From Dehalococcoidia bacterium (lineage in GTDB: Bacteria; Chloroflexota; Dehalococcoidia; UBA2979): DNA of 64,000 bases. A model generated the notes under the pieces. The model made no database searches and was not told the origin of the DNA. It saw nothing but the letters and a program-made list of their open reading frames with translations. Positions 41,583 to 62,786 of the stretch are shown piece by piece. The translations under genes and the position numbers were made by a program. The stretch covers positions 416,001 through 480,000 of the forward strand of contig CAXXDN010000002.1 of NCBI GenBank assembly GCA_963667465.2. The letters run 5' to 3'. How positions within the stretch are numbered: the first letter of the stretch is position 1; every line of letters starts with the position of its first letter.

Positions 41583-42438
41583 GTGCTCGCCTTCCCCGCC
41601 ATCGTCTCCAGGGAGGAATTCAAGCAGGTCGTGGCGCTGCTGCGCGCGAAGGCGCCGACGCAGGTCCATCCCCGTCGCGCCGCCAGCCCCTACCTGCTCA
41701 GCGGACTGGTGCGCTGCCGGATGTGTCGCCGCGCGCTCACCGAGGCCGAGGCGAAGAGCGGCAAGTACAGCTACTACGTCTGCCAGTCCCTCTTGAAGCG
41801 CGGCAGCGGCACCTGCGAGACGCCGCGGCTCAACGCGCAGCGCTTCGAACGGCTGATCGTCGAACAGATCCGCGAGCACATCCTCACCGAGTCCAACATT
41901 CGCGACCTCGTCCGGCTCGTCGACGAGGAGATGGACGGCGTGGCCCGCGAGGAGCGGGCGAAGCTGGAGAGCATCGAGGCCGAGCTGGCCGAGGTGCGCC
42001 GCAGGATGGACCGGCTGTGGCACGCCGTCGAGACCTCCGACCTCGAGATCAACGACATCCTGCCGCGGCTCCGGCTGCACCAGGAGAGTCAGGAGCGCCT
42101 CGAGACCGCGGCCGAGGAGGCGCGCGGGAGCCTGGCGGAGCGCCGCGCGGTGCTGGACAGCGTGGAGACGATCGCGGCGTTCGCGCGGGAGATGAGCGCG
42201 TTCCTGGACCAGCGAGCTCACCGAGTCGAAGGCGTTCATTCGCTCGTTCGTGAAGGAGATCGCGGTGCAGCCCGGGACGGCGACGATTCGCTACACCATC
42301 CCCACGCCGCCGGACAGCCCGATCGGCGGGCGGGATGCTGCGGAGGTCGAGTTGCCGGAGGCAGTTCGCAGTACAGATGGCATGGCTGCCGGGGACCAGT
42401 ATGGCTGGGGACCGAGGATTCGAACCCCGACCTACTGA
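41583..42438 (+). pseudogene. Large serine recombinase, C-terminal remnant with a frameshift near 42207
   Basis: YLLSGLVRCRMC, YYVCQS, C.TPRL Zn ribbon and coiled coil; closely similar to 53750-54900; continues in the second frame KEIAVQPG..IRYTIPTPPD. Confidence 0.88.
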
Positions 42439-42475
42439 TCCAGAGTCAGCTGTCCTACCATTAGACGAGTCCCCA
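42402..42475 (-). tRNA. tRNA-Gln (CTG)
   Basis: TGGGGACTCGTCTAATGGTAGGACAGCTGACTCTGGATCAGTAGGTCGGGGTTCGAATCCTCGGTCCCCAGCCA: cloverleaf, T-loop, CCA. Confidence 0.96.
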
Positions 42476-42555
42476 GCGGACCTCTCCACCCTAGCAAAAC
42501 CAGTGCCAGCGGTCATTCTCCCTCGAGGGTGTGCGCGCGCCTCGAGGCGGCGGGG

Positions 42556-44040
42556 TCAGGCGGGGTAGGCGGCGCGCAGGGCCGACTCGGCGGCGGCGAG
42601 GCGATCGAGGGACTTCGCGGGGCCGACGATCTCCATTGTCTCGAACAGCGGCGGGGTGACGCGCTTTCCGGTGACGGCGACGCGACAGAGCATGAACAGG
42701 TCGCCCGCGCGCACGCCCAGCTCCTCGGCGAGTGCGCGCAGGGCTGCCTCGAGGGACTGGGTAGTCCAGTCGTCGCGCAGGCCCTCGAGCGCCGCCGTTG
42801 CCGCTGCCAGCGCGGGTGCGGCCTGCTCCGGCTCGCGGCGGAACGATCGGCCGAGGAACTCGCCCGGCTCGGCCACGGGGACGTCCTCGGCGAAGAAGAA
42901 GTCGGTGAGCGCGGCCACCTCGGAGAGCAACTTCACGCGCTCGCTGATCAGCGGGGTGAACTGCTCGACGAGGCCGGCGTCGATCGGCCGCGCGACCGAG
43001 TCCGGCAGGTCGCGCTCCAGGCGCTCGGCGAAGCGCGCGGCGAGGTCGGCCTCGGGGAGCTGGCGCATGTAGACGCCGTTCATCCATTCCAGCTTCTCGC
43101 TGTTGAAGCCGGCGGGGGCGGGGTTGAGGTCGGCGAGGTCGAAAGCGGCCGACATCTCAGCGGCGGAGAGAATCTCGGTCTTGTCGTCCAGCGCCCAGCC
43201 CATGATCGCGAGGAAGTTGAGCAGCGCCTCCGGCAGGTAGCCCTCGGCGGCGTAGTCCAGCACGGACTGCGCGCCGTGGCGCTTGGAGAGCTTGCCCCCG
43301 TCCGGTCCGAGGATGACGGGCGTGTGCACGTAGATCGGCGGCTCTTGGCCGAGCGCCTCGAAGAGCCGCACGTGGCGCGGCGTCGAGGGAATCCACTCGT
43401 CGCCCCGGGTGACGTGCGTGATCGCCATCGCGTGGTCGTCGACGGCGTGGGCGAGATGGTAGGTGGGGAAGCCGTCCGACTTGAGCAGCACGAGGTCGTC
43501 GAGCAGGCGGTTTTCGTAGCGGATCGAGCCCCGGATCAGGTCGTCGAAGACGGTGACGCCCTCGCGCGGCATGCGGAAGCGGATCACGTGCGACTCGCCG
43601 GCCGCGGCGCGCTCCGCGCCCCGCGCGGCGTCGAGGTCGCGGCAGACGCCCTCGTAGCCCTGCGGGCGGCCGGCGGCGCGCTGGCGCTCGCGCATCGAGC
43701 GCAGGTCGTCGGGGGTGCAGAAGCAGCGGTAGGCATGGCCGTCCGCGAGCAGTTGCTCGCTGGCGGCGTGGTAGCGCTCGAGGCGCTGCGATTGCACGTA
43801 GGGGCCGTAGTCGCCGCCGGCGCCGGGCCCCTCGTCCCACTCGAGGCCGAGCCAGCGCAGTGAGTCCTCGATGCGTTGGACGGAGCCCTCGACGGCTCGC
43901 GACTGGTCGGTGTCCTCGATCCGCAGGATGAAGGCGCCGCCGTAACGGCGGGCGTGCAGCCAGGTCCAGATCGCGGTGCGGATGTTGCCGACGTGCGGGT
44001 CGCCGGTGGGGCTGGGCGCGTAGCGGACGCGGACGCTCAT
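42556..44040 (-). CDS. gltX: Glutamate--tRNA ligase
   Basis: RYAPSPTG.PHVGN, LRIEDTD, YRCFC, KLSKRHG. Confidence 0.96.
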   Translation of the reverse strand: MSVRVRYAPSPTGDPHVGNIRTAIWTWLHARRYGGAFILRIEDTDQSRAVEGSVQRIEDSLRWLGLEWDEGPGAGGDYGPYVQSQRLERYHAASEQLLADGHAYRCFCTPDDLRSMRERQRAAGRPQGYEGVCRDLDAARGAERAAAGESHVIRFRMPREGVTVFDDLIRGSIRYENRLLDDLVLLKSDGFPTYHLAHAVDDHAMAITHVTRGDEWIPSTPRHVRLFEALGQEPPIYVHTPVILGPDGGKLSKRHGAQSVLDYAAEGYLPEALLNFLAIMGWALDDKTEILSAAEMSAAFDLADLNPAPAGFNSEKLEWMNGVYMRQLPEADLAARFAERLERDLPDSVARPIDAGLVEQFTPLISERVKLLSEVAALTDFFFAEDVPVAEPGEFLGRSFRREPEQAAPALAAATAALEGLRDDWTTQSLEAALRALAEELGVRAGDLFMLCRVAVTGKRVTPPLFETMEIVGPAKSLDRLAAAESALRAAYPA

Positions 44041-44987
44041 CGCACGCCTCCCGTGCCGGACGCTGCCAGCGGCTGCGCCTCCACACCGTGGTCGGCGCGC
44101 AGCGCCTCGATCGCCGCGCCGATGTCGCCGGGGAGCGGCGCCTCGAACTCGCGCCACTCGCCGCTCGAGGGCAGGCAGAGGCCGAGCCGCCGCGCGTGCA
44201 GCGCCTGGCGCGCGATGCGGGGCGAGGGGTTGCCGTAGACGCCGTCGCTGAGGATCGGGTGGCCCATAGCCTGGAGGTGGACGCGGATCTGGTGCGTGCG
44301 GCCGGTCAGGATGCGGACTTCGAGCAAGGCGGCCTCCTCGCCGTACTGCTCCAGTACCCGGTACTCGCTGAACGCCGGGTCGCCGCGCTCGACCACCGCG
44401 CGGCGGATCGGGTCGGCGGGGTCGGGGCCGAGCGGGGCGTCGATACGGCCACGCCGAGGTTCGACGACGCCCTCGGCGATGGCGAGGTAGATCTTGAGCG
44501 TCTCGCGCGCCTTCCACTGCGCGCGTAGCGCGTCGCGGGCGGCGGCGGAGCGGGCGAAGGCGATCACGCCGGAGGTGTCGCGGTCGAGGCGGTGCACGAG
44601 GCCGGAGCGCGTCCCGCCGATCTCCTGCACCTCGGGGTAGCGGGCGCGCACTGTGTGGATGAGGGTGACCGCGGGGCGGCCCTGCACCGGGTGCACCAGC
44701 AGCCCCGGCTGCTTGTCGATGATCAGCGTGTGCTCGTCCTGGAACAGCACCTCGAGCGGTACGTCGAGCGCCATCGCGTCGAGGTCCGGCTGGGCGGGCA
44801 GACGGATCGCGATCTCGGCGCCCTCGGCCACTTCGCGGCCGGCGCGGGTGCGAGGCTCGCCGGCGACGTCGACGCGGCCGTCCTCGATCAGCCGCTGCGC
44901 CTGGCTGCGCGAGAGCTGCGCGAGCTGACCGGCGACGAGCCGATCGAGGCGGTCCGTGCGCGGGGCGGCGAAGCGTTCGAGCTGCAT
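44037..44987 (-). CDS. rluD: RluA-family pseudouridine synthase (RluD-like)
   Basis: S4 domain, IDKQPG, HRLDRDTSG, TGRTHQIRVH. Confidence 0.9.
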   Translation of the reverse strand: MQLERFAAPRTDRLDRLVAGQLAQLSRSQAQRLIEDGRVDVAGEPRTRAGREVAEGAEIAIRLPAQPDLDAMALDVPLEVLFQDEHTLIIDKQPGLLVHPVQGRPAVTLIHTVRARYPEVQEIGGTRSGLVHRLDRDTSGVIAFARSAAARDALRAQWKARETLKIYLAIAEGVVEPRRGRIDAPLGPDPADPIRRAVVERGDPAFSEYRVLEQYGEEAALLEVRILTGRTHQIRVHLQAMGHPILSDGVYGNPSPRIARQALHARRLGLCLPSSGEWREFEAPLPGDIGAAIEALRADHGVEAQPLAASGTGGVR

Positions 44988-45523
44988 CAGCCCCCCTCTT
45001 CCCCGCCGCCAGTCTCACCGCCCGGCCGCCAGAGCGACAGCACGGCGAGCGTGATCACGCCGACCACGATCGAGGAGTCGGCGATGTTGAAGGCGGGGTA
45101 GTGCGTGGGGTCGATGAAGTCCGTCACCGTGCCTCGGAAGAGCCGGTCGATCAGGTTGCCGATCGCGCCGCCGAGCACGAGCGCGAGGGCGGTCTCGTAG
45201 AGCCGGTCGCCGGGCGGGGCTGCGCGCAGGAAGACCAGCACGATCACCGCGCCGAGGATCGAGCTGGCGATCAGGAACGGCCCGCCGCCCTGCAGGATGC
45301 CGAACGCGGCGCCGGAGTTCTCGACGTGCGAGATGCGGATCAGATCGAAGCCCTCGGGCCAGGTCTCGCGCTCGTCCAGCCAGCCGCGTACGAGCGCCTT
45401 CGTGAGCTGATCGAGGATGATGACCGCCGCGGCGATTGCGGCGAAGCGCCGGACGTCCGTGCGCGGCAGCTCCGGGCGCGCGGCGTCCTCGTCCGATCCG
45501 GTCGCGGCGGCGGCTCGCTCCAT
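44987..45523 (-). CDS. lspA: Lipoprotein signal peptidase II
   Basis: DQLTK, NSGAAFG, GGAIGNLIDR, VTDFI, FNIAD. Confidence 0.95.
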   Translation of the reverse strand: MERAAAATGSDEDAARPELPRTDVRRFAAIAAAVIILDQLTKALVRGWLDERETWPEGFDLIRISHVENSGAAFGILQGGGPFLIASSILGAVIVLVFLRAAPPGDRLYETALALVLGGAIGNLIDRLFRGTVTDFIDPTHYPAFNIADSSIVVGVITLAVLSLWRPGGETGGGEEGG

Positions 45524-45652
45524 GCATCCATCCTATCGAAGGGCGCGGTTGCGGTCCGTTGCCCTCGCGTGTGAGCGCGCATCCGATACGATGGACCTGA
45601 GCGATTCACGCGCGCGGGCACGGCCCGAGCGCCACGGTGAGGAGCGAGCTTC

Positions 45653-46258
45653 GTGACGACGACAAACCTGCCCGGTCCCAAGCCGGTGCGCCCGCCCGAG
45701 GACCGTCTCCCGCCGGGGCAGCGCCTGACCGATGGCTGGCCGGTGCTGACCTACGGCTCCACGCCTCGCATCGACCTCGCGACCTGGGAGTTCCGCATCT
45801 TCGGCCTCGTCGAGGAGGAGGTGCGCCTGAGCTGGGATGAGTTCAACGCGCTGCCGGCGTACGAGGACACCTCGGACATCCACTGCGTCACCACCTGGAG
45901 CCGCTACGACAATCGCTGGCGCGGCGTGCGCTTCAGCGACGTGATGGCCCTCGCGAACGTGCTGCCCGAGGCGAAGGAAGTGATGTTCCACTCCTACGGT
46001 GGCTACACGACGAACGTGTCGCTCGACGAGCTGCTGCTCGACGGGGTGCTGTTCGCGCACACCCACGACGGCCAGCCGATCGATCGCGACCACGGGGGCC
46101 CGCTGCGCGGGGTGATCCCGCAGCTCTACTTCTGGAAGAGCGCGAAGTGGGTGCGTGGCATGGAGTTCCTGCCCGAGGTGCGCCCCGGCTTCTGGGAGAT
46201 GTACGGCTACCACATCCACGGCGACCCGTGGAAGGAACAGCGCTACTCCTACCAGTAG
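45653..46258 (+). CDS. Sulfite oxidase-like molybdopterin oxidoreductase (YuiH-like)
   Basis: RLPPGQ, DIHCVTTWS, HGGPLR, WKSAKW, GFWE..GYH. Confidence 0.9.
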   Translation: MTTTNLPGPKPVRPPEDRLPPGQRLTDGWPVLTYGSTPRIDLATWEFRIFGLVEEEVRLSWDEFNALPAYEDTSDIHCVTTWSRYDNRWRGVRFSDVMALANVLPEAKEVMFHSYGGYTTNVSLDELLLDGVLFAHTHDGQPIDRDHGGPLRGVIPQLYFWKSAKWVRGMEFLPEVRPGFWEMYGYHIHGDPWKEQRYSYQ

Positions 46259-46282
46259 GCGGGGATCAGAGCGCGGACCGGC

Positions 46283-46320
46283 TCCTTCTCTCCCTTGCGG
46301 GAGAGGGCGGGGTGAGGGGC
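46283..46320. repeat. Single REP-like unit in the reverse orientation
   Basis: CTCTCCCTTGCGGGAGAGGGCGGGGTGAGGGG, reverse complement of the cluster A/B unit, between convergent genes. Confidence 0.75.
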
Positions 46321-46351
46321 GCCGCGCCTCAGCGCGGCCAGCGACGACAGC

Positions 46352-47818
46352 CTAGACGAAGACCCGCGATCCGGCCTGGCGGACGTTGCCGGTGCGGCGC
46401 GCCTCGGCGGCGACCGCCGCGGAGACCTTGCGCACGACCTCCTCGTTGAAGACCGAGGGCAGGATGTAGTCCTCGTTGAGCTGCTGGTCAGGGATGACGT
46501 CGGCGATCGCGTGCGCGGCGACGAGCTTCATCTCCTCGGTGATGCGCTTCGCGCCGGCGTCGAAGGCGCCGCGGAAGAGCCCGGGGAAGCAGAGCACGTT
46601 GTTGACCTGGTTCGGGTAGTCCGAGCGTCCGGTCGCGATCACGCGCGCCTTGCCCGTGATCAGCTCCGGCATGATCTCCGGCTCCGGGTTGGACAGCGCC
46701 AGCACGATCGAGTCCTCGGCCATGCTGCCGACCTGCTCAGGCGAGAGCATGCGCGGCCCCGACAGCCCGAGGAACATGTCTGCTCCGCGCATCGCCTGCG
46801 TCAGGTCGCCGCTGAAGCCGTCCGGGTTGGTGTGCTCGGCGAACCACTCCTTCGCCGGGTTCAGGTTCTCGCGGCCGGGGTAGACGGCCCCGGTGCGGTC
46901 GAAGCCGATGATGTCGCGCACGCCGTAGTTGAGCATGATGCGCGCGCAGGCGATGCCCGAGGCGCCGACGCCAAGCACGACGACCTTCAGGTCCTCGGGC
47001 TTCTTGTCGACGATCTTGAGGCTGTTGATCAGCGCCGCGAGGACCACGACGGCGGTGCCGTGCTGGTCGTCGTGGAAGACCGGGATGTCCAGCTTCTCGA
47101 CGAGGCGGTCCTCGATGTCGAAGCAGCGGGGCGCGGAGATGTCCTCGAGCAGGATACCGCCGAACGTGGGCGCGATCGCCTCGACGATGTCGACGATGCG
47201 GTCGGGGTCCTTCGTATCGAGGCAGATCGGCCAGGCGTCGATCTCGCCGAAGCTCTTGAAGAGCATGCACTTGCCCTCCATGACCGGCATCGCCGCTTGC
47301 GGACCGATGTCGCCGAGGCCGAGCACCGCCGTGCCGTCGGTGACGACGGCGACGGTGTTGCGGCGCGCGGTCAGCGCCCAGACCGAGTCCGGCTCGTCGT
47401 GCACCATCATCGAGACACGGGCGACACCCGGCGTGTAGACGTGGGAGAGCTCCGCGTTGGTGCGGATGTTCACCTTGTTCGCGATCTCGATCTTGCCGCC
47501 GCGGTGCAGCTGGAAGGTGCGGTCCGAGGCGCGCTGCACCTCGACGCCATCGAGGGCGTCCACCCGCTCCACGATCTCGCGGGCGTGCGCGACGTCACGG
47601 CAGAACACGCGCAGCTCGCGGACCATGTAGTCGTGGCCTGCCTCGTGGATGTCGATTGCGCCGATGTCGCCTCCGCCCTCACCGATGGAGGTGGTGATCA
47701 GGCCGAGCTTTCCCGGTGCGTTCTGGATCCGCAGCATCATCAGCAACTGATAGCCCGACACAGGGCTCTCGTACTCGTCGACGACCCGGGCTTGTGGGTG
47801 GAATGATTCGTTTGTCAT
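46352..47818 (-). CDS. NAD(P)-dependent malic enzyme with N-terminal ACT domain
   Basis: YTPGVA, TDGTAVLGLGDIG, FHDDQHGT, GRSDYPNQVNN. Confidence 0.92.
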   Translation of the reverse strand: MTNESFHPQARVVDEYESPVSGYQLLMMLRIQNAPGKLGLITTSIGEGGGDIGAIDIHEAGHDYMVRELRVFCRDVAHAREIVERVDALDGVEVQRASDRTFQLHRGGKIEIANKVNIRTNAELSHVYTPGVARVSMMVHDEPDSVWALTARRNTVAVVTDGTAVLGLGDIGPQAAMPVMEGKCMLFKSFGEIDAWPICLDTKDPDRIVDIVEAIAPTFGGILLEDISAPRCFDIEDRLVEKLDIPVFHDDQHGTAVVVLAALINSLKIVDKKPEDLKVVVLGVGASGIACARIMLNYGVRDIIGFDRTGAVYPGRENLNPAKEWFAEHTNPDGFSGDLTQAMRGADMFLGLSGPRMLSPEQVGSMAEDSIVLALSNPEPEIMPELITGKARVIATGRSDYPNQVNNVLCFPGLFRGAFDAGAKRITEEMKLVAAHAIADVIPDQQLNEDYILPSVFNEEVVRKVSAAVAAEARRTGNVRQAGSRVFV

Positions 47819-48001
47819 AGGTCTGCTCCCAGCCTGGAGTCTCGAATGGTGCGACAAGCTGCCCCTGCGCGCCAGTGCCGCCCTGCCGAATGCTCGAGCT
47901 TCCGGGATTCCTCGCGCTTCCGATTGCGTCGCGCGGCGCCGCGCACAATTCCGCGGGGCACGGCGCAGTTGCGTGGTCCTTGGTATGCTCGGCGGGCGCT
48001 C

Positions 48002-48077
48002 GCCCCCATCGTCTAGGGGACCAGGACGCCACCCTTTCAAGGTGGAAACAGGGGTTCGAACCCCCTTGGGGGCACCA
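48002..48077 (+). tRNA. tRNA-Glu (TTC)
   Basis: GCCCCCATCGTCTAGGGGACCAGGACGCCACCCTTTCAAGGTGGAAACAGGGGTTCGAACCCCCTTGGGGGCACCA; extended -10 TGGTATGCT upstream. Confidence 0.96.
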
Positions 48078-48142
48078 ATCGGCAGGACATAAGGGCTCGC
48101 GCCAGGAATGACCCTCGCCGAGGGGGGGCGCCGTCCGGCGCG

Positions 48143-50335
48143 CTACTCCACGGGCAACTGGCTCCATAGCGACGCTGCGTACTCCATGCGCACGTCGATG
48201 GCCGTCGCGAGCGCCTCGGGGGTTTCGTAGTAGAGGCGGCGCGAGAGGTACTCGAACTCCCGTGAGCCGACCGGAGGGATCGTGAGGTCGCGCGCGTTGC
48301 CGCGCACCACGCGCAGCGCCCCGATCAGCCGCCGCAGGAACGCATACGCCTCGGGCAGCTTCACCGCGTCGTCGTAGCCGATGTGCCCCGTCTCGGCGAG
48401 CGCGGCGATGGCGTCGACCGTGCTCGGCGTACGCACCGAGGGCTCCGTGGCGCCGGCGCTGATCTGCAGCACCTGCACGTAGTACTCGACATCGACGAGC
48501 CCACCGCGGCTGTGCTTGGCATTGCGCTCGCCCGCCGCAACCAGCTCCGCGGCCTGGCGCTCGCGGAGGTGCAGTTGCTCGGCAATGTCGAACGGCGCGC
48601 CCGAGTAGACGAAGGCGTCCCGCAGCTCTTCGAGGGTTCGCCCGAGCGCGGCGTCGCCCGCGACGGGGCGCAGCCGCACCAGCGCCATGCGCTCGAACTG
48701 CCGCGCATCCCCGTCCGCCGAGTAGTAGCCGCAGCATTGGTCGATCGAGTTGGCGAGGCTGCCGCCGTCGCCGTGGGGCCGCAGCCGCAGGTCGAGCTCG
48801 AAGATGCCCTCGCGAGGCGCGTGGATCGCGTCGCGCACGCCGCGCACGAACTGCTCGAACCACGCCGCGTTCGGGATCGGGTCCGTGCCGTCGGTCGTCC
48901 CCGCGCCCTCGTACACCGTGAGCAACTCGAGGTCCGAGGCGAACCCGATCTCGCGCCCGCCGAACTTGCCGAGCGCGACGATCGTCCAGCGGCACGGGGC
49001 GCCCGAGGCCAGGCGAGGCGCGCCGTGGCGCTCCTCGAGCGCGCGCTCGGTCAGCGCCGCTGCCTCGCCGACCACGACCTCCGCGAGGTCGGACAGCTCG
49101 TGCGAGAAGTCGGCGAAGCCCGTCCGGCCGCTGATGTATCGCAGGTCGATGCGGAACAGCTCGCGGTCCTTGAACGCGTTGAGCGTTGCGGCATCGGGCG
49201 GCCCGCCGTCCGGCGCGGTGGCGTGCAGCGCCTCCCGAAGCTCTGCGGGCGGGCGCGCGGTGTCGAGGGCGGGGAGGTCCGTGAGCACCGGAAACAGGTT
49301 CTCGTGCTGGAAGCGCAGGAAGTCCTCCCACAGGTAGCGGCTCACGCCGAGGGCCGTCGCGAGCGTTTCAAGCACCCCTTCGTCGGCCAGGGCCGCCAGC
49401 GACTCGCGCCGCTCGCCGAACGCCAGCATGCTGCGCGCGAGGGCGCTGAACTGCCGCAGCGCCTGCGCGGGGTCTGGCGCGAGCGGCAGCAACTGTGTGA
49501 ACTGCCGGATCAGCACCGCCACCACGCGCAGCTCCTCGAGGCGCAGCGGATCCTCAAGCTTCGAGCCGTCGCGCGTGGTCACCCAGAACGTGTCGCGGCT
49601 TTCGCGGCCCGCTGTGCGCACCTCGGCGCGCTGCACGGACACCTCCAGCATGGCGAGGGCGTTGGTGAACTCGAAGAGGAAGCCGCGCTCGTCGACCCCC
49701 GCGATGGTCAGCACTGCCGCAGCGGGGTCCGAGGTCGCGTCGACGTCGACCGCGATCGGGTAGAGCGGACGCGCGGACGCCTGGCCACGCGGCAGGGTGC
49801 GCCCGATGCCCTCGATGATCGAGGCGTGCGCCGCCTCGGCGTCGCCGCCCGCGAGCAGCGCGAACGCCTCGGCGAGACCGGGGCGGATCGCCTCCCAGGG
49901 GTCACGATCGCCGATCCTTCGCACAACGAAGCGGTCGAGGAGCAGCCGTGAAGGCCGGATCGGGCCGCGCGCCGGCAGCGGGCGCCTCGGCATTCCCGGA
50001 CGCCTGCCCGGACGCGGAGCGCCGGGCAGGGGTGGCGGGCGTTGGACGGGCGTGTCGCGGCGCACCGTGAAGAGGTCTGCGTGCTCGATATCGAACCCCT
50101 GCGCGGTCAGCGAGCCGGCGATGAGCGAGAGCGCACCGGGGATGTCCGGCGCGACGACCGTGACAGCGTGCGCGTCGCCACCGAGGGGCCGCGACTCGCC
50201 GGCGACGTCGGTCGCCGCGGCGATGCGCTCCGCGAGGCCGGGATGCCGCGCCCGCTCCTCGGCATCGAATGCCTCGTAGGCCGGCCCGAGCTGGGTCGCG
50301 AGGCTGTCCGCGTCGAGGGCGTCAGGAGGGGGCAT
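48143..50335 (-). CDS. GlnE-type adenylyltransferase domain fused to two GlnD-like ACT domains (start uncertain)
   Basis: GKFGGREIGFASDLE, DLRLRPHG, KHSRGGLVDVEY; ACT motifs APDIPGAL and GVDERGFL...DTFWV. Confidence 0.8.
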   Translation of the reverse strand: MPPPDALDADSLATQLGPAYEAFDAEERARHPGLAERIAAATDVAGESRPLGGDAHAVTVVAPDIPGALSLIAGSLTAQGFDIEHADLFTVRRDTPVQRPPPLPGAPRPGRRPGMPRRPLPARGPIRPSRLLLDRFVVRRIGDRDPWEAIRPGLAEAFALLAGGDAEAAHASIIEGIGRTLPRGQASARPLYPIAVDVDATSDPAAAVLTIAGVDERGFLFEFTNALAMLEVSVQRAEVRTAGRESRDTFWVTTRDGSKLEDPLRLEELRVVAVLIRQFTQLLPLAPDPAQALRQFSALARSMLAFGERRESLAALADEGVLETLATALGVSRYLWEDFLRFQHENLFPVLTDLPALDTARPPAELREALHATAPDGGPPDAATLNAFKDRELFRIDLRYISGRTGFADFSHELSDLAEVVVGEAAALTERALEERHGAPRLASGAPCRWTIVALGKFGGREIGFASDLELLTVYEGAGTTDGTDPIPNAAWFEQFVRGVRDAIHAPREGIFELDLRLRPHGDGGSLANSIDQCCGYYSADGDARQFERMALVRLRPVAGDAALGRTLEELRDAFVYSGAPFDIAEQLHLRERQAAELVAAGERNAKHSRGGLVDVEYYVQVLQISAGATEPSVRTPSTVDAIAALAETGHIGYDDAVKLPEAYAFLRRLIGALRVVRGNARDLTIPPVGSREFEYLSRRLYYETPEALATAIDVRMEYAASLWSQLPVE

Positions 50336-50420
50336 CGGCCGGCCAGATCCGCGGGTCGTCGGCCCACCGCGCGCCATCGCGGCGACCACGCCCGCTGCGC
50401 CGCCATGATAGCGTCGTGCA

Positions 50421-51638
50421 ATGTCTGAGCACGCGCGCGCTTCGGATGTCCCCGAGCTCCTCGCAGCGTTCGACACGGGTGCGCTGCTGCGTCCCGACCC
50501 GGCGGCGCCGAACCTGGTCGACGCGGCCCGCGCGGTGGCCGCGAGCGCGGGTGCGAACGGCCTCGAGCTTTCCCCGTTCGCGGGCGACCTCGCCGCGTCG
50601 CTGGCCGGGCGCGAGCACATCGTGCTCATCCTCGCCGACGGCCTCGGGATGGGGATGCTGGAGCGCGAGGACGGCGCGCGCACGCTGCGAGGCAACCTGC
50701 GTGGCGAGCTGCGGACGGTCTTCCCGTCCTCGTCGGCCGTCGCGCTGACCTCGCTCGCCACGGGGGAATGGCCGGCGAGCCATGCCGTCACCGGCTGGTG
50801 GACGCACATCGAGGAGATCGGCGGCCCGGCGACGATCCTGCAGTACCGCCGCCGCTCCGATGACCGCGCGCTCGCCGATCTGGGCGTCGCGCCCGAGAAC
50901 GCCTTCCCGGCGCCAAGCCTCGCGCCGCGGATCGCGCGGCGGGCCCACTACCTGCTGCCACACCAGATCGCCGACAGCGTTTACTCGCGCTACTGGGCGG
51001 GGGGTCCCGCTGTCGGCTACCGCTCCCTGGCCGACGCGCCCGGATCGATCACGGGGACAGCGAGGGATGCGGGCGAGCCCACGTTCGGCTACGTCTACGT
51101 GCCCCACGTCGACAACGAGGCGCATCAGGGCGGCCCGGAGAGCAACGGGGTCCGCGCCGCCATCCTCGCCGTCGACCGCCTCGTCGCGGACCTGAAGGCC
51201 GCGCTCGGCGAGTCCGCGGCCGTGGTCGTGACCGCGGACCACGGGCACCTCGGCGTCACGGCCGCCGATCGGCGCATGATCCGCGCCACCTACGGCATCC
51301 CCCCGCTCCTCGCGAGCCCGCCGTCGGGAGACCCGCGGGTGATCGAGTTCCACGTCCGCCCCGACGCGCACGAGCGCTTCGAGGAGTACTTCCGCACCGC
51401 GTTCGGCCGGCAGTTCTACCTGCTCACCACCGCCGAGGTCGAGGAACTCGGCCTGCTCGGTCCCGGGCCGCTGGCGCCCCGGACGCGCCAACGGCTCGGG
51501 GACTTCATGGCGATCTCGCGAGGGCCGGCCGTGCTCGGCTTCCAGCTCTCGAAGGCCTCGCGGGAGGCTGCGCAGCAGCGCTCGCACCACGCGGGGCTGA
51601 CGCCGGCGGAGATGCTCGTCCCGCTGGTCGTCGCCTGA
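50421..51638 (+). CDS. Alkaline phosphatase superfamily / nucleotide pyrophosphatase-phosphodiesterase
   Basis: LADGLG, TVFPSSS, DNEAH, TADHGH, HHAGLT.AEM.VP. Confidence 0.85.
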   Translation: MSEHARASDVPELLAAFDTGALLRPDPAAPNLVDAARAVAASAGANGLELSPFAGDLAASLAGREHIVLILADGLGMGMLEREDGARTLRGNLRGELRTVFPSSSAVALTSLATGEWPASHAVTGWWTHIEEIGGPATILQYRRRSDDRALADLGVAPENAFPAPSLAPRIARRAHYLLPHQIADSVYSRYWAGGPAVGYRSLADAPGSITGTARDAGEPTFGYVYVPHVDNEAHQGGPESNGVRAAILAVDRLVADLKAALGESAAVVVTADHGHLGVTAADRRMIRATYGIPPLLASPPSGDPRVIEFHVRPDAHERFEEYFRTAFGRQFYLLTTAEVEELGLLGPGPLAPRTRQRLGDFMAISRGPAVLGFQLSKASREAAQQRSHHAGLTPAEMLVPLVVA

Positions 51639-51691
51639 CACGCGCGCTTCCCTTCGCGCCACACGACATAATCACTTGCGAGCGAGGGCCA

Positions 51692-52720
51692 TCAACCCGG
51701 GTCGCCGCGGGCGGGCTCCTCGGGGCGTGCGCTGCCGCTGCGGAAGACCTCGCGGGGGCGGAGGCTCAACGCCAGCATGGCCACGGCGCCGCTCAGCGTG
51801 ATCCAGCCGAGCAGCACGAGGTGCGAACCGACCGCATAGGCGCTCGCGTCCACGCGATCGCCGCCGAGCAGGACGAACGCCTCGGTCACTGCGATCTCGT
51901 ACGGGCCGACGTCCCAGGGTGTCAGCGGCAGGGAGACGATGAGATTGGCGGCGATCATCAGCACGATCGCCTCGCCGGCGCCCAGCTCGAAGCCGAACGC
52001 CCGGCCGAGCATCCAGTAGACCGCGACCTCCGCCAGCCAGGCGACGATCGAGACGACCAGCGCCCCGGCGATGCGGTGCAGGTCGCGCAACGAACTCATG
52101 CCCTCAAGGAACTGCCGCGTGTACTGCGCCCCGCGTCCGTGCCAGCGATCGGGCAGCCAGCGCAGCAGGGCGGAACGCTCCGGATCCTCGGGCACGCCGA
52201 GCCGCGCGAGCCAGCTCAGGCCGAGGAAGACGACCAGGACCATGACCGCGAAGAAGACCAGCGCAGGCAGGGCGACGACCAGGTCGCCGAAGAGCGCCAC
52301 GGCGGCGAGCAGCAGCAGCACGAACGCCAGCCCGTCGAAGATCGTCTCCACGATCAGCACGCTGCTGACGAGCTCGGCGCGCGGCAGCTTGAGCATCCGG
52401 CTCGGCAGCTCGATGCGCAGCAGATCGCCCGCGCGGAACGGCACGAGGGCGTTCGCCAGGTTCGAGGCGAGGAAGATCCCGAACAGCGGCGCCAGCGGCG
52501 CCTCGCGGTGCTGCAGGAAGACGCGCCAGCGGTAGGCGTGGATCGCCTTCGAGAGCGTGAAGGTCGCCATTCCTGCCAGGATCCAGCCGGGCCGTACGTC
52601 CGGCAGGTGCCGGAAGCCCTCGACGATGTCGACTCGCCAGATGAGGAGCGCGAGCGAGATCGCGATCAGCGGCAGTTGAATGGCGACGAGACGTCGGTGG
52701 CGCCCGATGTACCTCAGCAC
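51692..52720 (-). CDS. Lysylphosphatidylglycerol synthase TM / flippase-like protein
   Basis: AYRW, NALVPFRAGDLLR, ETIFDG, PLTP..VGPYE. Confidence 0.85.
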   Translation of the reverse strand: MLRYIGRHRRLVAIQLPLIAISLALLIWRVDIVEGFRHLPDVRPGWILAGMATFTLSKAIHAYRWRVFLQHREAPLAPLFGIFLASNLANALVPFRAGDLLRIELPSRMLKLPRAELVSSVLIVETIFDGLAFVLLLLAAVALFGDLVVALPALVFFAVMVLVVFLGLSWLARLGVPEDPERSALLRWLPDRWHGRGAQYTRQFLEGMSSLRDLHRIAGALVVSIVAWLAEVAVYWMLGRAFGFELGAGEAIVLMIAANLIVSLPLTPWDVGPYEIAVTEAFVLLGGDRVDASAYAVGSHLVLLGWITLSGAVAMLALSLRPREVFRSGSARPEEPARGDPG

Positions 52721-52840
52721 GCGAATCAGGATAGGCCTCTTGCGTTACATGCGCCCCTCGGACGTCCTCGGGGCGCTCGGGAGGCAGCGCGGCCGGCCTG
52801 CTATCGTGCGCGCGGCGGGGGCGAGACGGGGGCAAGACGA

Positions 52841-53611
52841 GTGGCGGTTCCTCGGACCTGCTTCGCCACGACCGACGGACGCCTCGTGCCCACCGTCTCC
52901 GTCGAGGAGATGCGCGAGATCGACCGCATCGCTGTCGAGGAGACCGGTCCCGGGCTGCTGCAGATGATGGAGCACGCCGGGCTCGAGTTGGCCCGCGCGG
53001 CGCTCGCGATGCTTGGCGAGCACTGGCCGCACGCACGGGTCGTGGTCCTCGCCGGCAACGGCGGCAACGGCGGCGGCGGGCTCTGCGCCGCGCGCCTGCT
53101 GGCGAGCCGCGGCGTCGAGGTGCTCGCGGTGACGATCGCCCGCCCCTCGAGGGCGAGCGACGCCGTCGCGGCGCAGCTGCGGTTGCTGCACGAGTCACCG
53201 GCCCGCGTCATCGCCTGGTCCGACGCCTTCGACATCGGCGAGGCGGATCTGGTGGTCGACGCGGTCGTCGGCTACGGGCTGCGCGAGGCGCCGACCGGGC
53301 CGGTGATGGCGCTGGTCCGCGCGGCGCAGGCCGCCACCGCGCCCGTGCTCTCCCTCGATGTGCCCTCGGGCGTCGACGCGGACAGCGGCGAGACGCCCGG
53401 CTTCGCCGTGCGAGCGACGCGCACGCTCACGCTGGCGCTGCCGAAGCCCGGGCTCCGCCGCGAGCAGGCGGGCGACCTGTGGCTCGCTGACCTCGGCATC
53501 CCGCCCGGCGTCTTCGCGCGCGCCGGCCTCGCCTTCGACTCGCGGTTCGGGCCACACTTCGGCCCGGCCACGCAGATCCGGCTGCGCTACCCGGACGAGG
53601 TGGAGGGCTGA
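52841..53611 (+). CDS. nnrE: NAD(P)H-hydrate epimerase (stand-alone YjeF-N)
   Basis: MREID, MMEHAG, GNGGNGGGG, DAVVGYG, SLDVPSG, LADLGIP. Confidence 0.88.
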   Translation: MAVPRTCFATTDGRLVPTVSVEEMREIDRIAVEETGPGLLQMMEHAGLELARAALAMLGEHWPHARVVVLAGNGGNGGGGLCAARLLASRGVEVLAVTIARPSRASDAVAAQLRLLHESPARVIAWSDAFDIGEADLVVDAVVGYGLREAPTGPVMALVRAAQAATAPVLSLDVPSGVDADSGETPGFAVRATRTLTLALPKPGLRREQAGDLWLADLGIPPGVFARAGLAFDSRFGPHFGPATQIRLRYPDEVEG

Positions 53612-53628
53612 CGGTCCTCGGAGGCGGC

Positions 53629-53658
53629 TTGAGCGTGCCGGAGCGGCTTTGATAGGCT
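53629..53658 (+). promoter_or_regulatory. Probable sigma70-type promoter of tRNA-Glu(CTC)
   Basis: TTGAGC-18 nt-TAGGCT with extended TG, 14 nt before the tRNA. Confidence 0.5.
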
Positions 53659-53672
53659 GAAGGTCACTCGGC

Positions 53673-53749
53673 GGCGCATTCGTCTAGTGGCCCAGGACAT
53701 CGCCCTCTCAAGGCGAAGATCGCGGGTTCGAATCCCGCATGCGCCACCA
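53673..53749 (+). tRNA. tRNA-Glu (CTC)
   Basis: GGCGCATTCGTCTAGTGGCCCAGGACATCGCCCTCTCAAGGCGAAGATCGCGGGTTCGAATCCCGCATGCGCCACCA. Confidence 0.96.
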
Positions 53750-54931
53750 ACACGTACCGAACTCATAACTCGGCCTGAGAGAGCGACCTCGGCGGCGTTC
53801 GCGCCCCCGAGGGGACCGTCCGGCGGAGTCGGCATCGTGTAGTGGATGGTGGCCTGTCCGGGCCGCACCAGGATCGCCTGCACGAAGGAGCGCACGAACG
53901 CCCGCGTCTCCGTAATCTCGCTGGTGCGCAGGAACTCGCTCATCTCATCCGCTAAGGCCGCCACCGTCTCCGCGCTGTCCAGCAGCACCCGCCGCTCGGC
54001 CAGCATCGCCCGCGCCTCGTCCGCTGAGACCTCCAGCTGCCGCTGCCGCTCGCGGTGTTCCTGGATGCGCTCCGAGGCGTCGGCCAGATCGAGGTTGGTG
54101 TTCTCCACCACCTGCCAGACGCGGCCCAGCTTGCGCCGCACCTCCTCCAGCTCCGCCTCGATGCTCTCCAGCTTCTCGCGCTGCTCGCGCGCCACCCCGT
54201 CCATCTCCTCGTCGAGCAACCGCACGAGGTCGCAGATGTTGGACTCGGTGAGGATGTGGTCGCGCAGCTGCCCGATGATCGTCTCCTCGAAGCGCCGCGC
54301 GTTGAGCCTCGGCGTGACGCAGGCCTCCTTGCCGCGCTTGAGCAGCGACTGGCAGACGTAGTAGGCGTACTTGCCGCTCTTCGCCTCGGCGGCGGTGAGG
54401 TTGCGCCCGCAGCTCTCGCAGCGCACGAGCCCGCTCAGCAGGTAGGGGCTGGAGACGCGCCTCGGGTGTTCCACGTTCGGCGCGCGCGAGCGCAGCAACT
54501 CCTGCACGCGCTCGAACTCCTCCGCGCTCACGATTGCCGGCACGGCGCCCTCGACGCGCACGGGTGGGGCCTTGCCCTTGCTCCGCTTTCCCCAGACGAG
54601 CGTGCCCTTGTAGGCCTCGTTGCCGAGCATCCCATGCACGGTGTTCTTCAACCACCTGCCGCCGTTGCGGGTGGGGATGCCCTCGGCGTTGAGGGTGCGC
54701 ACGATGTCGAGCACGCTCTGGCCTGCGAGCGCCATCGTGAAGATGCGCCGCACGACGGCGTCGGAGGGTGGGTCGAGTTCCAGCTTCGGGCGCTCCTTGG
54801 CGCCGTCCTGCACGCGCACCTTCTTGTAGCCGTAGGGCGCGTAGGTCGAGACCCAGAAGCCGCGCGAGGCGGCTTCGCGCATCCCGCGCGTCACTTCGTC
54901 ACGACCGCAAGCAACCGAAAGGAACGGAACC

Positions 54932-56713
54932 ATGGACCTGGCTGAGTTCATCGATACGTACCGGGACGCCATTGCCCGGCGGGTAGTGGAGTCCTACCCG
55001 CCACGCTACCGGCCCTCCGAGCAGGGCCGCACGCTCCCCCACCTGCTGCGCACCCCGCTGGGCGCGCAGGCCGACGCCATCCGCGGCGCGGCGCTCTCGC
55101 TTGAGGCGCAGCGCGGCACGACCGTCGTCGGGGAGATGGGCACGGGCAAGACCTTCATCGCGGCTTCAGCCGCCTACATGGCGGGCTTCGAGCGCGTGCT
55201 CGTGCTTTGCCCGCCGCATCTCACCCGCAAGTGGAAGCGCGAGGTCGAGGAGACGGTGCCCGGCGCCCGCGCCGCCATCGTCGCCTCGATCACCGACCTC
55301 GAGCGGCTGCGTACCGTGACCGCCACCGGCCCGCTCTTCGCGATCATGTCGCGCGAGCGCGCCAAGCTCTCCTACCGCTGGCAGCCCGCCGTGGTGGAGC
55401 GCTGGGCCACCACCGCCCGTGGGCTCGTGCGCCACGAGGAGACGGGCGAGCCGTTCCAGATGCCGTGCTGCCCGGACTGCCACGCGCAGATCGTCGACAA
55501 GGACGGGGTGCCGCTGCTCGCTCGCGACCTCGCCCGCCGCAAGCGCCGGTGCGCGGAGTGCGGCGCGGCGCTCTGGCAGGCCGACCGCTCCGGACCGAAG
55601 CGTTACCCGCTCAGCGACTACGTGAAGCACCGCCTGCGGGGCTTCTTCGAGCTGCTGATCGGCGACGAAATCCACGAGTTCAAGGCGCGAGGTTCCGCCC
55701 AGGGCATCGCCGCCGGCGTCCTCGCCGATACCTGCGGCAAGTCCCTCTCCCTGAGCGGCACCTTGATGGGAGGGTATTCCTCCACGCTCTTCCACCTGCT
55801 CTACCGGTTCTCCCCGGAGATCCGGGGGGAGTTCGGGCGCTCCGAGGAGAGCCGCTGGATCGAGCGCTACGGCTTCGTCGAGCGCACCATCGGGCGCGAC
55901 GACCCCGACTCCTTCGAGGACGGGCGCACGAGCCGCCGCAAGCGCTACCGCAAGATCGTGCGGGAGCGGCCGGGGCTCGCCCCCGCCGCCCTCTTCCACC
56001 TGATCGGCAACAGCGTCTTCCTGCGGCTCGCCGACGTCGCCTCGGGCCTCCCGCCCTACGAGGAGCGCGTGCTGCTCTCCTCGATGGACGCGGAGCCAGG
56101 CGCTGACGGGCTCTCGCAGCGCTCGGGCTACGACGAGCTCTACGGGACGCTGCGGGCGGCGCTCGCCGACGCGCTCGCGAAGGGCTCGCGGCGGCTGCTC
56201 GCCACCTACCTGCAGACGCTGCTCGCCTACCCCGACGGCTGCACACAGGGCGAGACGGTCTTCGACCCGGAGACTGCGGACGTGCTCGTGCAGGTGCCGC
56301 CCCTCCCCGAGGACGGCCTCGCTGCCTACGGGGACGACGGCGACGACCTGCTGCTGGCCCTGGCGAGGAAGATCGTCGCGGGCGAGGAGGACGACGGCTC
56401 GGTCGAGTCGGTCTTCGAACAGGCCCGGCAGGTCGCGGCGGAGGCCGAGGCGCTGCTGGTCGACGAGGGCTGGCACGCGCCCGAGCCGGAGCCTGCGGTC
56501 GTAGAGGCCGAGGCTGTGACGGTCGCGAGCGAAGACCGCGAGGAAGCGCCCGCGACGCAGCGGACGCTGTTCTCGTGGGCGGAGTTCATGGCGGACACGC
56601 CGGATGAGCCGCTACCGCCCCGGGGTCGCCGCCACGACGAGGCCCCAACGCTCTCACTCTTCGAGTGGGCGCTGGAGCGGGAGCACGAGGGGGTGCTATC
56701 GGGAGCGGCCTGA
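54932..56713 (+). CDS. SNF2/SF2-like helicase, apparently internally deleted
   Basis: GEMGTGKT Walker A, CxxC..CxxC insert, DEIH, SGT motif III; no motifs IV-VI; AAAGGA RBS. Confidence 0.75.
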   Translation: MDLAEFIDTYRDAIARRVVESYPPRYRPSEQGRTLPHLLRTPLGAQADAIRGAALSLEAQRGTTVVGEMGTGKTFIAASAAYMAGFERVLVLCPPHLTRKWKREVEETVPGARAAIVASITDLERLRTVTATGPLFAIMSRERAKLSYRWQPAVVERWATTARGLVRHEETGEPFQMPCCPDCHAQIVDKDGVPLLARDLARRKRRCAECGAALWQADRSGPKRYPLSDYVKHRLRGFFELLIGDEIHEFKARGSAQGIAAGVLADTCGKSLSLSGTLMGGYSSTLFHLLYRFSPEIRGEFGRSEESRWIERYGFVERTIGRDDPDSFEDGRTSRRKRYRKIVRERPGLAPAALFHLIGNSVFLRLADVASGLPPYEERVLLSSMDAEPGADGLSQRSGYDELYGTLRAALADALAKGSRRLLATYLQTLLAYPDGCTQGETVFDPETADVLVQVPPLPEDGLAAYGDDGDDLLLALARKIVAGEEDDGSVESVFEQARQVAAEAEALLVDEGWHAPEPEPAVVEAEAVTVASEDREEAPATQRTLFSWAEFMADTPDEPLPPRGRRHDEAPTLSLFEWALEREHEGVLSGAA

Positions 56714-56724
56714 TAGGGCAATGC

Positions 56725-56762
56725 GGAGAGGAGGGGCACCACAAGCGGTGCCCCTCCTCTCC
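56725..56762. terminator. Strong hairpin between convergent genes
   Basis: GGAGAGGAGGGGCACC-acaagc-GGTGCCCCTCCTCTCC, 16-bp perfect stem. Confidence 0.7.
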
Positions 56763-56841
56763 TCGCCCCTGTGTGTGGCTTCTCGTGCGTTAACGGGCAG
56801 CCGCGGCAGTGGCCTATGGATCGCAGCCCGAGCCCCTGTGG

Positions 56842-57531
56842 TCACCCGATTTGCAGGCCCAGTACGGCGAGTGCGCGAGTGACGTCCGGGTCGTCGGGCC
56901 GGACCGGTTCGGTACTGAATGAACGCAAAGGTGCGGGCGTGTCCGCCGCCGGTTCGAAGATGGCCCAGTTGGATGTCCCGTCGTCGAGGCGCGACTGGTA
57001 GCGGATGCCGGCGAGCGGCTCGACTCCTTCGGTGCGGCACTCGTAGACGAGCCGGGAGACCTCCTGCGTGAAGCGGCGGGGAGCGGTGAGGCGAATCCCG
57101 GCTGCATCAATGTCCGGGAGCCCGTGATGGATGCCCCTGTCCGCCAGGCGCGAGCGCAGCACCGACAGCGAGGCAGCCGCGCCGATGTCGGCGTAGGTTC
57201 CAACGAGTTCAGCCACGCCCATGAGCCGGTGCTCGAACCACTCGCACGGGACCGTTCCGGCTGCAACCGGCTCGTCATCGCCCTCGATTTCGCGGAGCCC
57301 TGCCACAACCTCGAGGTCGGGGCGAAACGGTGCGAGCGTCTCGATCAGCGCTCCGAAGCGCGCCGTGCTGGCGTACAGAACACGGTAGAACCCCAGCGGA
57401 TCGTCCCAGCGATTGCCGAAGGTGCCGTCGTGGCCAGCCTGGCTCCAGTCGGGCCACGCCCAGGGTTCGGGAGCGCGGGCGAGACGGAAGACCGGACCGG
57501 CGGGGGTCACGGTCTCGAGGCCGCAGCTCAT
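56842..57531 (-). CDS. RES-domain toxin
   Basis: VFRLAR, GNRWDDP..YRVLYAS, ALIETL, GIRYQSRL, NWAIFE. Confidence 0.85.
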   Translation of the reverse strand: MSCGLETVTPAGPVFRLARAPEPWAWPDWSQAGHDGTFGNRWDDPLGFYRVLYASTARFGALIETLAPFRPDLEVVAGLREIEGDDEPVAAGTVPCEWFEHRLMGVAELVGTYADIGAAASLSVLRSRLADRGIHHGLPDIDAAGIRLTAPRRFTQEVSRLVYECRTEGVEPLAGIRYQSRLDDGTSNWAIFEPAADTPAPLRSFSTEPVRPDDPDVTRALAVLGLQIG

Positions 57532-57920
57532 CCGCCGGACAGGAAGGCGCGCGCGGCGGCGATCACATCGGGGCCTACCTCGTCGAGGTCGCCTTCGCGG
57601 AGCAGTCGCAGTGGTGAGCGGTCGTCGAGCTGGGGGTTCAGCCCCTGGAACCAGGCCTGCGCGACGGCCGCCGAGTCGGCAGCGGCGATCGGAGCAGCGG
57701 CCTGCAGAGCGGTGCGAAGGCGTCGTTCCACATCGGCACTCGGTCTACGCGAGCCGTCCGCCCACTGGTGGACAGCGCGCGTCTCCTTGACCGATCCGAG
57801 GTACGCACAGAGCTTGGCGCCGAGGATTTCGCGCACATCGCGGACCACTTCCGGGAACGTGGAGCGGGTTGCGCGCACATGAGCTTCGTAGTCCGGACGG
57901 GCAACAGGGGTCGTCGTCAC
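57528..57920 (-). CDS. Xre/MbcA-like antitoxin of the RES toxin
   Basis: ILGAKLCAYL, AVHQWADG, AWFQGLNPQLDDRSP; ATGA coupling to the toxin; GAGGAGG RBS. Confidence 0.82.
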   Translation of the reverse strand: MTTTPVARPDYEAHVRATRSTFPEVVRDVREILGAKLCAYLGSVKETRAVHQWADGSRRPSADVERRLRTALQAAAPIAAADSAAVAQAWFQGLNPQLDDRSPLRLLREGDLDEVGPDVIAAARAFLSGG

Positions 57921-57944
57921 TGGCCACCTCCTCGGCTCAAGGAG

Positions 57945-57990
57945 AGTATACCATCACTATCCCGGCATGAATCACGCTACGATCACACCC
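57945..57990 (-). promoter_or_regulatory. TA operon promoter with possible operator repeats
   Basis: Extended -10 TGGTATACT; three GTGAT direct repeats upstream. Confidence 0.5.
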
Positions 57991-58323
57991 AGCGGAGGGG
58001 CGGCCGGCGGGGCGGCCTCTCCCCCTCCGCGCTCCATGTGCGCGGCCCTTCCGGCGTTGAGCGGGAGCCGGGGTCGCAAGCGTCTCCACCCTGGATGCCG
58101 ATCATCGACGCGGGGCCGCCTCCCTTACCACATGTTCGATCCCCCGTGGTCGTCTGGTGGCGCGGGCTGTAGGCGAGGGCCCGCCTCGTTGAGCAGGCGA
58201 CCGGTACCGGCACGGGGTTTGTCAGGATACCGGGAAGATCCCCAATACCATGGCGGGTGCGCCGACAGGAGCATCGGTGGAGCGCCAGGCGGCCCGGCGA
58301 GGACGCGCATGCCTCGGCGGCGG

Positions 58324-62627: not shown

Positions 62628-62786
62628 GATTATGGCGGTCACCCGCCACAGAAGCCCCTTCACCGTCATGGGCTAGATCCGTAACGTGGATGCCTTTGCA
62701 GATCATGCGGGGCAGAGCTTCTTGTGAGAGCAACATGCGGCTGTGCGCCTGCTCAGGTTGGCTCGCCTCGACCCAGGGGACGCCTG

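Follow-up and report, generated by a model that had tools for sequence, protein, structure and literature searches.

Two truncated serine recombinase genes beside tRNA genes of a Dehalococcoidia bacterium: probable remnants of integrative elements with the attachment site inside the recombinase gene

The window analyzed here is a stretch of 64,000 nucleotides of contig CAXXDN010000002.1 from a Dehalococcoidia bacterium (G000:C2:416001-480000), whose genome has a size of 2.97 Mb and a G+C content of 70%. Two open reading frames (ORFs) in this window, A and B, encode C-terminal parts of large serine recombinases (LSRs) and run into tRNA genes on the opposite strand. The two ORFs are very probably the decayed attL-side (tRNA-proximal) ends of two distinct integrative elements, both of which would belong to one LSR-moved family of the Dehalococcoidia and Chloroflexota, in which the attachment (att) site is contained in the 3′-terminal part of the recombinase gene and insertion at the tip of a tRNA gene swaps the tail of the enzyme.

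Recombinase remnants in the window and elsewhere in the genome

ARAGORN identified tRNA-Gln(CTG) at 42402-42475 on the minus strand and tRNA-Glu(CTC) at 53673-53749 on the plus strand. Together with the ORF translations, these predictions bear out the initial annotation, in which two LSR remnants were reported to run antisense into the two genes. Remnant A (41583..42401, plus strand) has only the C-terminal part with a zinc ribbon and a coiled coil. Its ORF covers 41583..42464 (plus strand) and a frameshift lies near 42205-42211; the shifted frame (42211-42438) reads ..AVRSTDGMAAGDQYGWGPRIRTPTY with a stop inside tRNA-Gln(CTG), the translation from 42211 being SELTESKAFIRSFVKEIAVQPGTATIRYTIPTPPDSPIGGRDAAEVELPEAVRSTDGMAAGDQYGWGPRIRTPTY followed by the stop. 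Remnant B (53750..54897, minus strand) retains the Recombinase domain, zinc ribbon, coiled coil and C-terminal part, and its frame is open. The surrounding ORF (53587..54972, minus strand) reads ..VRVGGACGIRTRDLRLERAMSW.. across the entire antisense tRNA-Glu(CTC); the frame continues from ..SGRVMSSVRV into GGACGIRTRDLRLERAMSW.. and through the antisense tRNA plus 54 further codons. This read-through tail (53587..53749, minus strand) is host-encoded and was not in the original gene.

A Pfam search detected the PF13408 zinc ribbon alone in remnant A (E = 5.7e-11), and PF07508 Recombinase (E = 1e-24) followed by PF13408 (E = 1.8e-12) in remnant B. The resolvase catalytic domain with the catalytic serine (PF00239) was absent from both in this search. 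The resemblance of remnant B to intact relatives starts at ..EVTRGMREAASRGFW.., at about 54897; the catalytic domain is cut off there, where a ResIII-type helicase gene begins on the opposite strand (54932..56713, plus strand). This helicase gene either belongs to the cargo of the island or was inserted later. Because both recombinase genes have lost the catalytic domain, nothing in the window can still move by itself. Three motifs quoted earlier as shared by A and B are present in their BLASTP alignment. The view of the two as close-paralog twins had to be abandoned, since the identity is only 58% across 254 aa and 62% in the final 55. Remnant B is 92% identical to an intact relative of 545 aa (P0005). 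A and B are two independent truncated remnants, not working enzymes or close twins.

An element-side att arm is preserved at the end of each gene. The last codons of gene B form the arm GAGTTATGAGTTCGGTACGTGT (53750..53771, minus strand), a type that was also found at loci L053 and L009-L012 and in congener G414. The last codons of gene A form an arm remnant (P arm, GTTCGCAGTACAG.., 42364..42382, plus strand), which also adjoins tRNA-Gln(TTG) in the same genome and occurs in L073. A spacer of 19 nt (42383..42401, plus strand) separates the end of gene A from tRNA-Gln(CTG); it resembles a second partial tRNA-Gln tip (TGGCTGCCGGGGACC + AGTA) and may have been left behind when a second element was deleted. 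Judging from the relatives described below, the att cores would be the tips of the two tRNA genes: TGGCTGGGG at 42402-42410 (plus strand), with a putative crossover dinucleotide at 42406-42407, and TGGTGGCGC at 53741-53749 (minus strand), with a putative crossover dinucleotide at 53744-53745.

Similar scars were found elsewhere in the genome. A third remnant, likewise C-terminal, reaches as far as the 3′ end of tRNA-Arg(CCG) (C2:1242424-1242592; about 1500-1669 in L006), and a fourth (G000:C2:916212-916290), with 71 nt that are 94% identical to window positions 42306-42376, adjoins tRNA-Gln(TTG). In A, B and the tRNA-Arg(CCG) remnant alike, codon position 3 is occupied by the T of the antisense TGG, which corresponds to the CCA end; because of this shared entry phase, the tRNA T loop is read as ..IRT.. 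in all three. The tmRNA gene of the same genome has no recombinase arm adjoining it. An arm of a second recombinase type, GGTTCTCGATTTTGTCCAGCTC, adjoins the tRNA-Met tip (C2:1179319-1179345); it does not look coding and there is no recombinase gene beside it.

Relatives and their tRNA targets

Copy B was used as the query of a protein search in which 8000 candidates were scored; 2957 of them passed the cut-off of E ≤ 1e-20. The best 120 proteins are mostly intact, with the Resolvase (PF00239), Recombinase and zinc ribbon domains and a modal length of 544 aa, and the alignment consensus of the intact relatives contains ..YARVSSDRQ... The relatives diverge after a conserved ..IPTPxDSP..V[MR]x[ST]Vxx GG into tails read from antisense tRNA, for example GGPGWTRTIDLGLIRTAL and GxACGIRTRDLRLERAVS, both followed by a stop, and GGAGGTRTPYLFNAIEALSQLSYSP... 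A regular expression sorted the tails of these 120 proteins into 98 that are tRNA-antisense-like in a fixed register (at least one of them mislabeled), 21 others and one without the anchor.

In a scan of loci restricted to one genome per species, at least 501 of at least 518 stretches were confirmed. The best 80 loci were analyzed, nearly all of which come from metagenome-assembled genomes of Dehalococcoidia or Chloroflexota. At 54 of these 80 the gene end enters the 3′ end of a tRNA gene on the opposite strand in one and the same codon phase. The remaining loci have a second, convergent recombinase gene (8/80), a non-tRNA "far-end arm" sequence (8/80), a tRNA 3′ fragment (4/80), or are truncated or otherwise different (6/80). 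A tmRNA gene adjoined the recombinase gene at none of the 80 loci. The tRNA lies within 3 nt of a position 86 nt past the anchor at 49 of the 54 tRNA loci, the remaining five having come from a relaxed look. The encoded CCA is exactly in place at 46 of these 49, and the other three tRNA genes have no encoded CCA. At L044, L052 and L055, GAG or AAG replaces TGG at the junction (no encoded CCA) and the register is still kept.

The tRNA genes at the 54 loci represent 16 isoacceptors for nine amino acids: Ile-GAT (12 loci), Ala (GGC, TGC and CGC; 12), Arg (CCT, TCG, CCG and TCT; 9), Met (6), Val (TAC and GAC; 5), Lys-TTT (4), Gln (TTG and CTG; 3), Glu-CTC (2) and Leu-TAG (1). The family is common in the Dehalococcoidia and Chloroflexota, with abundant intact relatives, and it has evidently changed its target many times at one constant geometry. 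The initial annotation had proposed both that homologs be surveyed for overlap with tRNA 3′ ends and that the family had been retargeted from one tRNA to another; the overlap is common, and the retargeting extends well past the two tRNAs of the window.

Attachment site and crossover

The structure of the att site was seen in intact elements of the relatives. Tandem arrays were found downstream of tRNA-Ile in three genomes, each element being bounded by TGGTGGGCC, which is the complement of the tRNA tip GGCCC-A-CCA. The far end of each arrayed element is an inverted copy of the last codons of its own recombinase gene. In G003 the gene end GTTCGCAGTACGGTACG pairs with the far end CGTACCGAACTGCGAAC, located 55.7 kb away; the arms are 17 nt long and the center of symmetry falls between TGGTG and GGCC. 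The elements measure 29, 42.6 and about 26 kb in G004 and 26.4 kb in G005. A perfect 15-nt inverted arm was also found 64 kb from the recombinase end at tRNA-Gln(TTG) of G009, where only TGGCTG is common to both ends and the center of symmetry likewise falls between core positions 5 and 6. Overall, the delimited elements in relatives span 26-64 kb and have a core of 6-9 nt in common with the tRNA tip. Their arms of 15-17 nt would make up a site of about 50 bp. On sequence grounds, this att anatomy is that of a serine-integrase attP. Because one arm of the inverted repeat is made of the last codons of the gene (about eight), the attachment site lies inside the gene. The putative central dinucleotides are GG, AC, TG and AG, as the tRNA targets differ.

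A far-end motif, built from the non-tRNA junctions, consists of the core followed by N5-KGAC-N7-ARWAC. It occurs 12-20 times per genome in G001-G005, and the reversed control 2-7 times. Many of the motif copies in these five genomes come after coding-like sequence (..NLNxKVLDFVQ..), which might represent genes of a third recombinase subtype; in some copies the first T of the core is replaced by A, G or C. Searches for the 9-nt core in 10-kb element-side flanks gave matches only in unrelated coding sequence.

The following course of integration is suggested by these observations. In intact relatives an attP of about 50 bp would straddle the 3′ end of the LSR gene, one binding arm being supplied by the last eight or so codons and the second by the inverted copy at the other end of the element. 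Between the two arms would lie a core with the sequence complementary to the tRNA tip, such as TGGTGGGCC. Strand exchange with the tRNA gene would take place at tRNA bases 71/72, five bases from the CCA end. The tRNA would stay intact and only 6-9 nt would be duplicated, because the element would supply only base 72, the discriminator and CCA, all of which are identical in attP. The stretch encoding the last 17 or so residues of the recombinase would span attP as long as the element is free or in tandem, and would be supplied by the antisense tRNA after insertion; as the crossover would lie inside the ORF, the C-terminal tail would be replaced on insertion. An att site within the 3′ end of the gene, a crossover at the tRNA tip and a replaced C-terminus had all been put forward from the window sequence, and the relatives agree with the three proposals. 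The entry phase, the att cores, the inverted arms and the exchange of the tail can be read from the sequences; the exact crossover dinucleotide, the activity of the enzymes and any role of the tail are what we infer from them.

Several points weigh against this explanation. The placement of the crossover rests on the symmetry of the arms and on the end of sequence identity, with no circle, empty site or recombination product observed. The far-end arm of G008 nearest to L070 does not match the arm type of L070. The far ends of both islands in the window genome were not found, and far-end arms were absent from that genome in a search allowing up to two mismatches. The extra 19 nt between copy A and tRNA-Gln(CTG) have no explanation in this scheme. 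Finally, the sites used for the tail analysis below were picked by a DNA motif over codons 0-9, many come from the same five genomes, and they are not independent of one another.

The C-terminal tail

The tail of the excised form was studied at 51 far-end sites, which comprise 40 of 75 motif hits (27 with no or one mismatch and 13 with two; nine hits to the arm of the second recombinase were left out, as were hits already collected), seven loci from the scan and four array junctions. The recombinase frame stops at codon 18-21 past the core at 38 of the 51 sites (TAG at 19, TGA at 13 and TAA at 6), and in the other two frames a stop mostly comes no later than codon 7. Past the arm, in codons outside the constraint of the motif, entropy is lowest at codon position 2. 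The pooled ratio of nonsynonymous to synonymous polymorphism (pN/pS) past the arm is 0.54, 0.43 and 0.29 in the recombinase frame for three length groups and 0.75-2.5 in the other frames, which is to be taken as an indication and not as a formal test. The tail of about 17 residues encoded across attP thus looks like the real C-terminus of the enzyme, and therefore insertion at a tRNA rewrites the end of the protein.

It has been suggested for DsiB, the recombinase of the tmRNA islands of Dehalococcoides, that function may depend on the circular form (McMurdie et al., PMC3146451). In addition to the scheme above, the tail swap could be a built-in control. A selected peptide of about 17 residues (..P-x-x-T-V-x-R/S-T-x-F-E-M/L-x-L/V-x-x-L-stop) would be encoded only when the ends of an element are joined or when the end of a neighboring element is adjacent, and insertion would exchange it for antisense tRNA codons. 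Enzymes with the native tail (on the circle) and with the tRNA tail (in the chromosome) would then differ in activity or direction, giving control of directionality without an excision factor. Three features of the excised-form tail speak for such a role: a stop at a conserved position, conserved residues (..T-V-x-R/S-T-x-F-E-..-L-stop) and a pN/pS lower than in either of the other frames. The tails encoded by tRNAs, however, vary from 16 to more than 100 residues with no sign of selection; the conserved stop may merely end translation cleanly, and constraints on the DNA beside the att arm could account for the pattern. We regard this control as a tentative idea that is rather unlikely to be correct.

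Alternative explanations

The crossover could also lie deeper in the tRNA, in the anticodon or T loop, with the element carrying the 3′ part of the tRNA as the islands of tyrosine integrases do. This would fit L034 and L084, where the LSR is followed by a 48-nt 3′ fragment of tRNA-Ile ending in the anticodon stem, and also several proteins that share tRNA-like tails only up to a point in the anticodon stem. At L034, however, the gene of a P4-type tyrosine integrase comes directly after the 48-nt fragment and explains the break. An exact tRNA repeat of at least 12 nt is absent from the 10-kb element-side flank at 49 loci, a 20-nt repeat of the tRNA-Ile tip is absent genome-wide from five genomes, and the arms are symmetric about the core at the tip. 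A deeper crossover is thus very improbable. The specific case of a crossover in the anticodon loop was dropped, as tRNA-Ile of L034 has been split by a second, classical island of the P4-type tyrosine-integrase kind. That island (L034 11579-12892) was inserted at the anticodon stem and displaced the 48-nt fragment together with the serine-recombinase element.

Remnant B, with about 383 open codons and its DNA-binding domains intact, might be kept as a catalytically dead protein that binds att sites, for example to block further insertions at the tips of tRNA genes. There is no frameshift or stop within 53750-54897, the G+C content at third codon positions (0.89) resembles that of genuine genes, and an ATG in frame is present at 54972. 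Against this, remnant B is 85-92% identical to intact relatives, and recent decay is the simplest cause of its open frame; the preceding 25 codons show no relation to the gene and overlap the beginning of the neighbor on the opposite strand, and a similar truncated form does not recur in the congeners examined. We therefore give little credence to a retained function of remnant B.

That the ORFs run through into tRNAs by chance, in a genome with 70% G+C, few stop codons and a window in which long spurious ORFs are common, is hardly conceivable, being refuted by the identical phase and distance at 54 of 80 loci, in genomes of lower G+C content and at different tRNAs.

Comparison with known systems

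The closest system is that of the Dehalococcoides tmRNA islands, and the existence of serine-recombinase islands at ssrA in this genus, mentioned in the initial annotation, is indeed described. McMurdie et al. (2011; PMC3146451) described these islands as having a serine recombinase of 540 aa, DsiB, together with a repeat of 20 bp. The overlap of the DsiB ORF with attL and the idea of a C-terminus that differs between circle and chromosome were already published there, and in the view of these authors full function of the enzyme may be limited to the circle. With the published primer as a pattern, 44 of 401 genomes of the same class gave matches, and the ssrA arrangement was found again in G065 and G089. 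One genome with this arrangement has five copies within 110 kb, and its recombinase reads ..VFLVETGEGRTPRPEKVTQDLLQD to a stop through ssrA, in another phase. The recombinase adjoining ssrA in G065 is homologous to, and distant from, the family described here (25% identity to P0034 over 399 aa, E = 4e-22).

As in DsiB, an LSR of about 540 aa is located at attL, runs antisense into a tRNA-like gene and has its stop outside the island; tandem stacking and the host class are also shared with the ssrA islands. Unlike DsiB, the present family targets ordinary tRNA genes (16 isoacceptors) and not ssrA; the duplicated core is 6-9 nt and not 20 bp; and the T of TGG occupies the third codon position instead of the second. 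The integration module of the one element that was scanned seems to differ from that of the ssrA islands in having a Replic_Relax protein and helix-turn-helix (HTH) regulators. A DsiA-like small recombinase or RecF, ParB or Mom domains were not found among the 10 largest of the 19 ORFs of this element. The tRNA-targeting family is a variant of the published tmRNA-island design, and the overlap of ORF and att site is itself not new (2011).

The integrases of phiC31, Bxb1 and A118/LI mostly target protein-coding genes, and their att sites are outside the integrase ORF. The intact relatives share with such phage-type LSRs the order of Resolvase, Recombinase and zinc ribbon. The short att sites, in which imperfect inverted repeats surround a central dinucleotide that is not palindromic and in which attP and attB share hardly any sequence, are a further likeness. 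They differ from phiC31, Bxb1 and A118 in their tRNA targets and in an att site within the ORF. In archaeal tyrosine integrases of the SSV type the gene is split by integration, with a crossover inside the tRNA and a long repeat. Here, too, attP is inside the integrase gene and integration alters the protein, but the SSV-type enzyme is a tyrosine recombinase and a large part of its gene is removed. The islands of tyrosine integrases of the Islander type also differ, as the present family uses a serine recombinase and showed no displaced repeat of a tRNA fragment in the 49 flanks and five genomes searched. SCCmec needs two recombinases and its target is the end of a protein-coding gene. Both SCCmec and the elements described here are placed by serine recombinases at one specific chromosomal site and accrete in tandem, whereas an overlap of ORF and att site is not reported for SCCmec. 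Its recombinases CcrA and CcrB are the nearest characterized relatives of DsiB (PMC3146451).

According to a standard reference, serine integrases are not known to use tRNA genes (PMC4383910). Our literature search returned no paper on serine integrases that target tRNA genes; supplements and subscription journals were outside its coverage, and the result is no proof of absence.

Islands, cargo and convergent pairs

The strain-specific stretch that begins past tRNA-Glu(CTC) is a decayed island of about 20.7 kb in total, of which 53750..64000 lies in the window. Synteny with five congeners returns at the equivalent of window position 74432, beyond the window. The distance from tRNA-Glu(CTC) to the next conserved block is 1.5-10.4 kb in the five congeners vs. 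20.7 kb here, and other arm remnants are present at the tRNA-Glu(CTC) tip in three of the five. The tip of tRNA-Glu(CTC) is a hot spot; of the decayed island here, the first 10 kb fall within the window. No recognizable core or arm was detected at the far junction near 74432; one exact 9-mer, without an arm, is present at 66710. To the left of tRNA-Gln(CTG) there is no synteny with the five congeners within 20 kb, so the boundary of that island is not set.

Some 11 kb separate tRNA-Gln from tRNA-Glu(CTC) in this genome and in G414; the gap widens to about 54 kb in G248 and to 66 kb in G415. Some congeners therefore have a large insertion in this interval, perhaps at tRNA-Glu(TTC), which ARAGORN places at 48002-48077 on the plus strand of the window. 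Large surface-type repeat proteins (InlB B-repeat/Flg_new and Calx-beta) are encoded at 38646-41474 and 58324-62406 of the window, in variable DNA adjoining both remnants.

Cargo was surveyed in one delimited element, the 29-kb element of G004, among the 10 largest of its 19 ORFs of at least 100 aa. An Eco57I-type methylase, an SNF2/PLD helicase, a metallophosphatase, HTH regulators and a Replic_Relax protein of 561 aa were identified.

At L035 (9992-13383) a second recombinase gene stands tail-to-tail with the first, and the two have the core in common. The first 165 or so residues (the catalytic domain) of this pair are almost identical and the rest has diverged, with 53-55% identity overall, which suggests either exchange between paralogues or constraint on a shared module. 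The convergent pairs in the G004 and G005 arrays sit at the junctions of neighboring elements, and convergent pairs are read as stacked elements of two orientations.

Implications

For the organism of the window, this accounts for four or five tRNA-gene scars and for some 20 kb of variable DNA, without contributing anything active. Serine integrases are favored tools for the insertion of large DNA, and the present family, which targets the very tips of at least 16 different tRNAs, leaves them undamaged and needs only about six shared bases. If the tail swap did act as a control, directionality would be governed without a separate excision factor. Because the target has changed many times at one geometry, the family is a natural case for studying how integrases are retargeted, and it is a possible source of integrases aimed at sites that are present in every genome.

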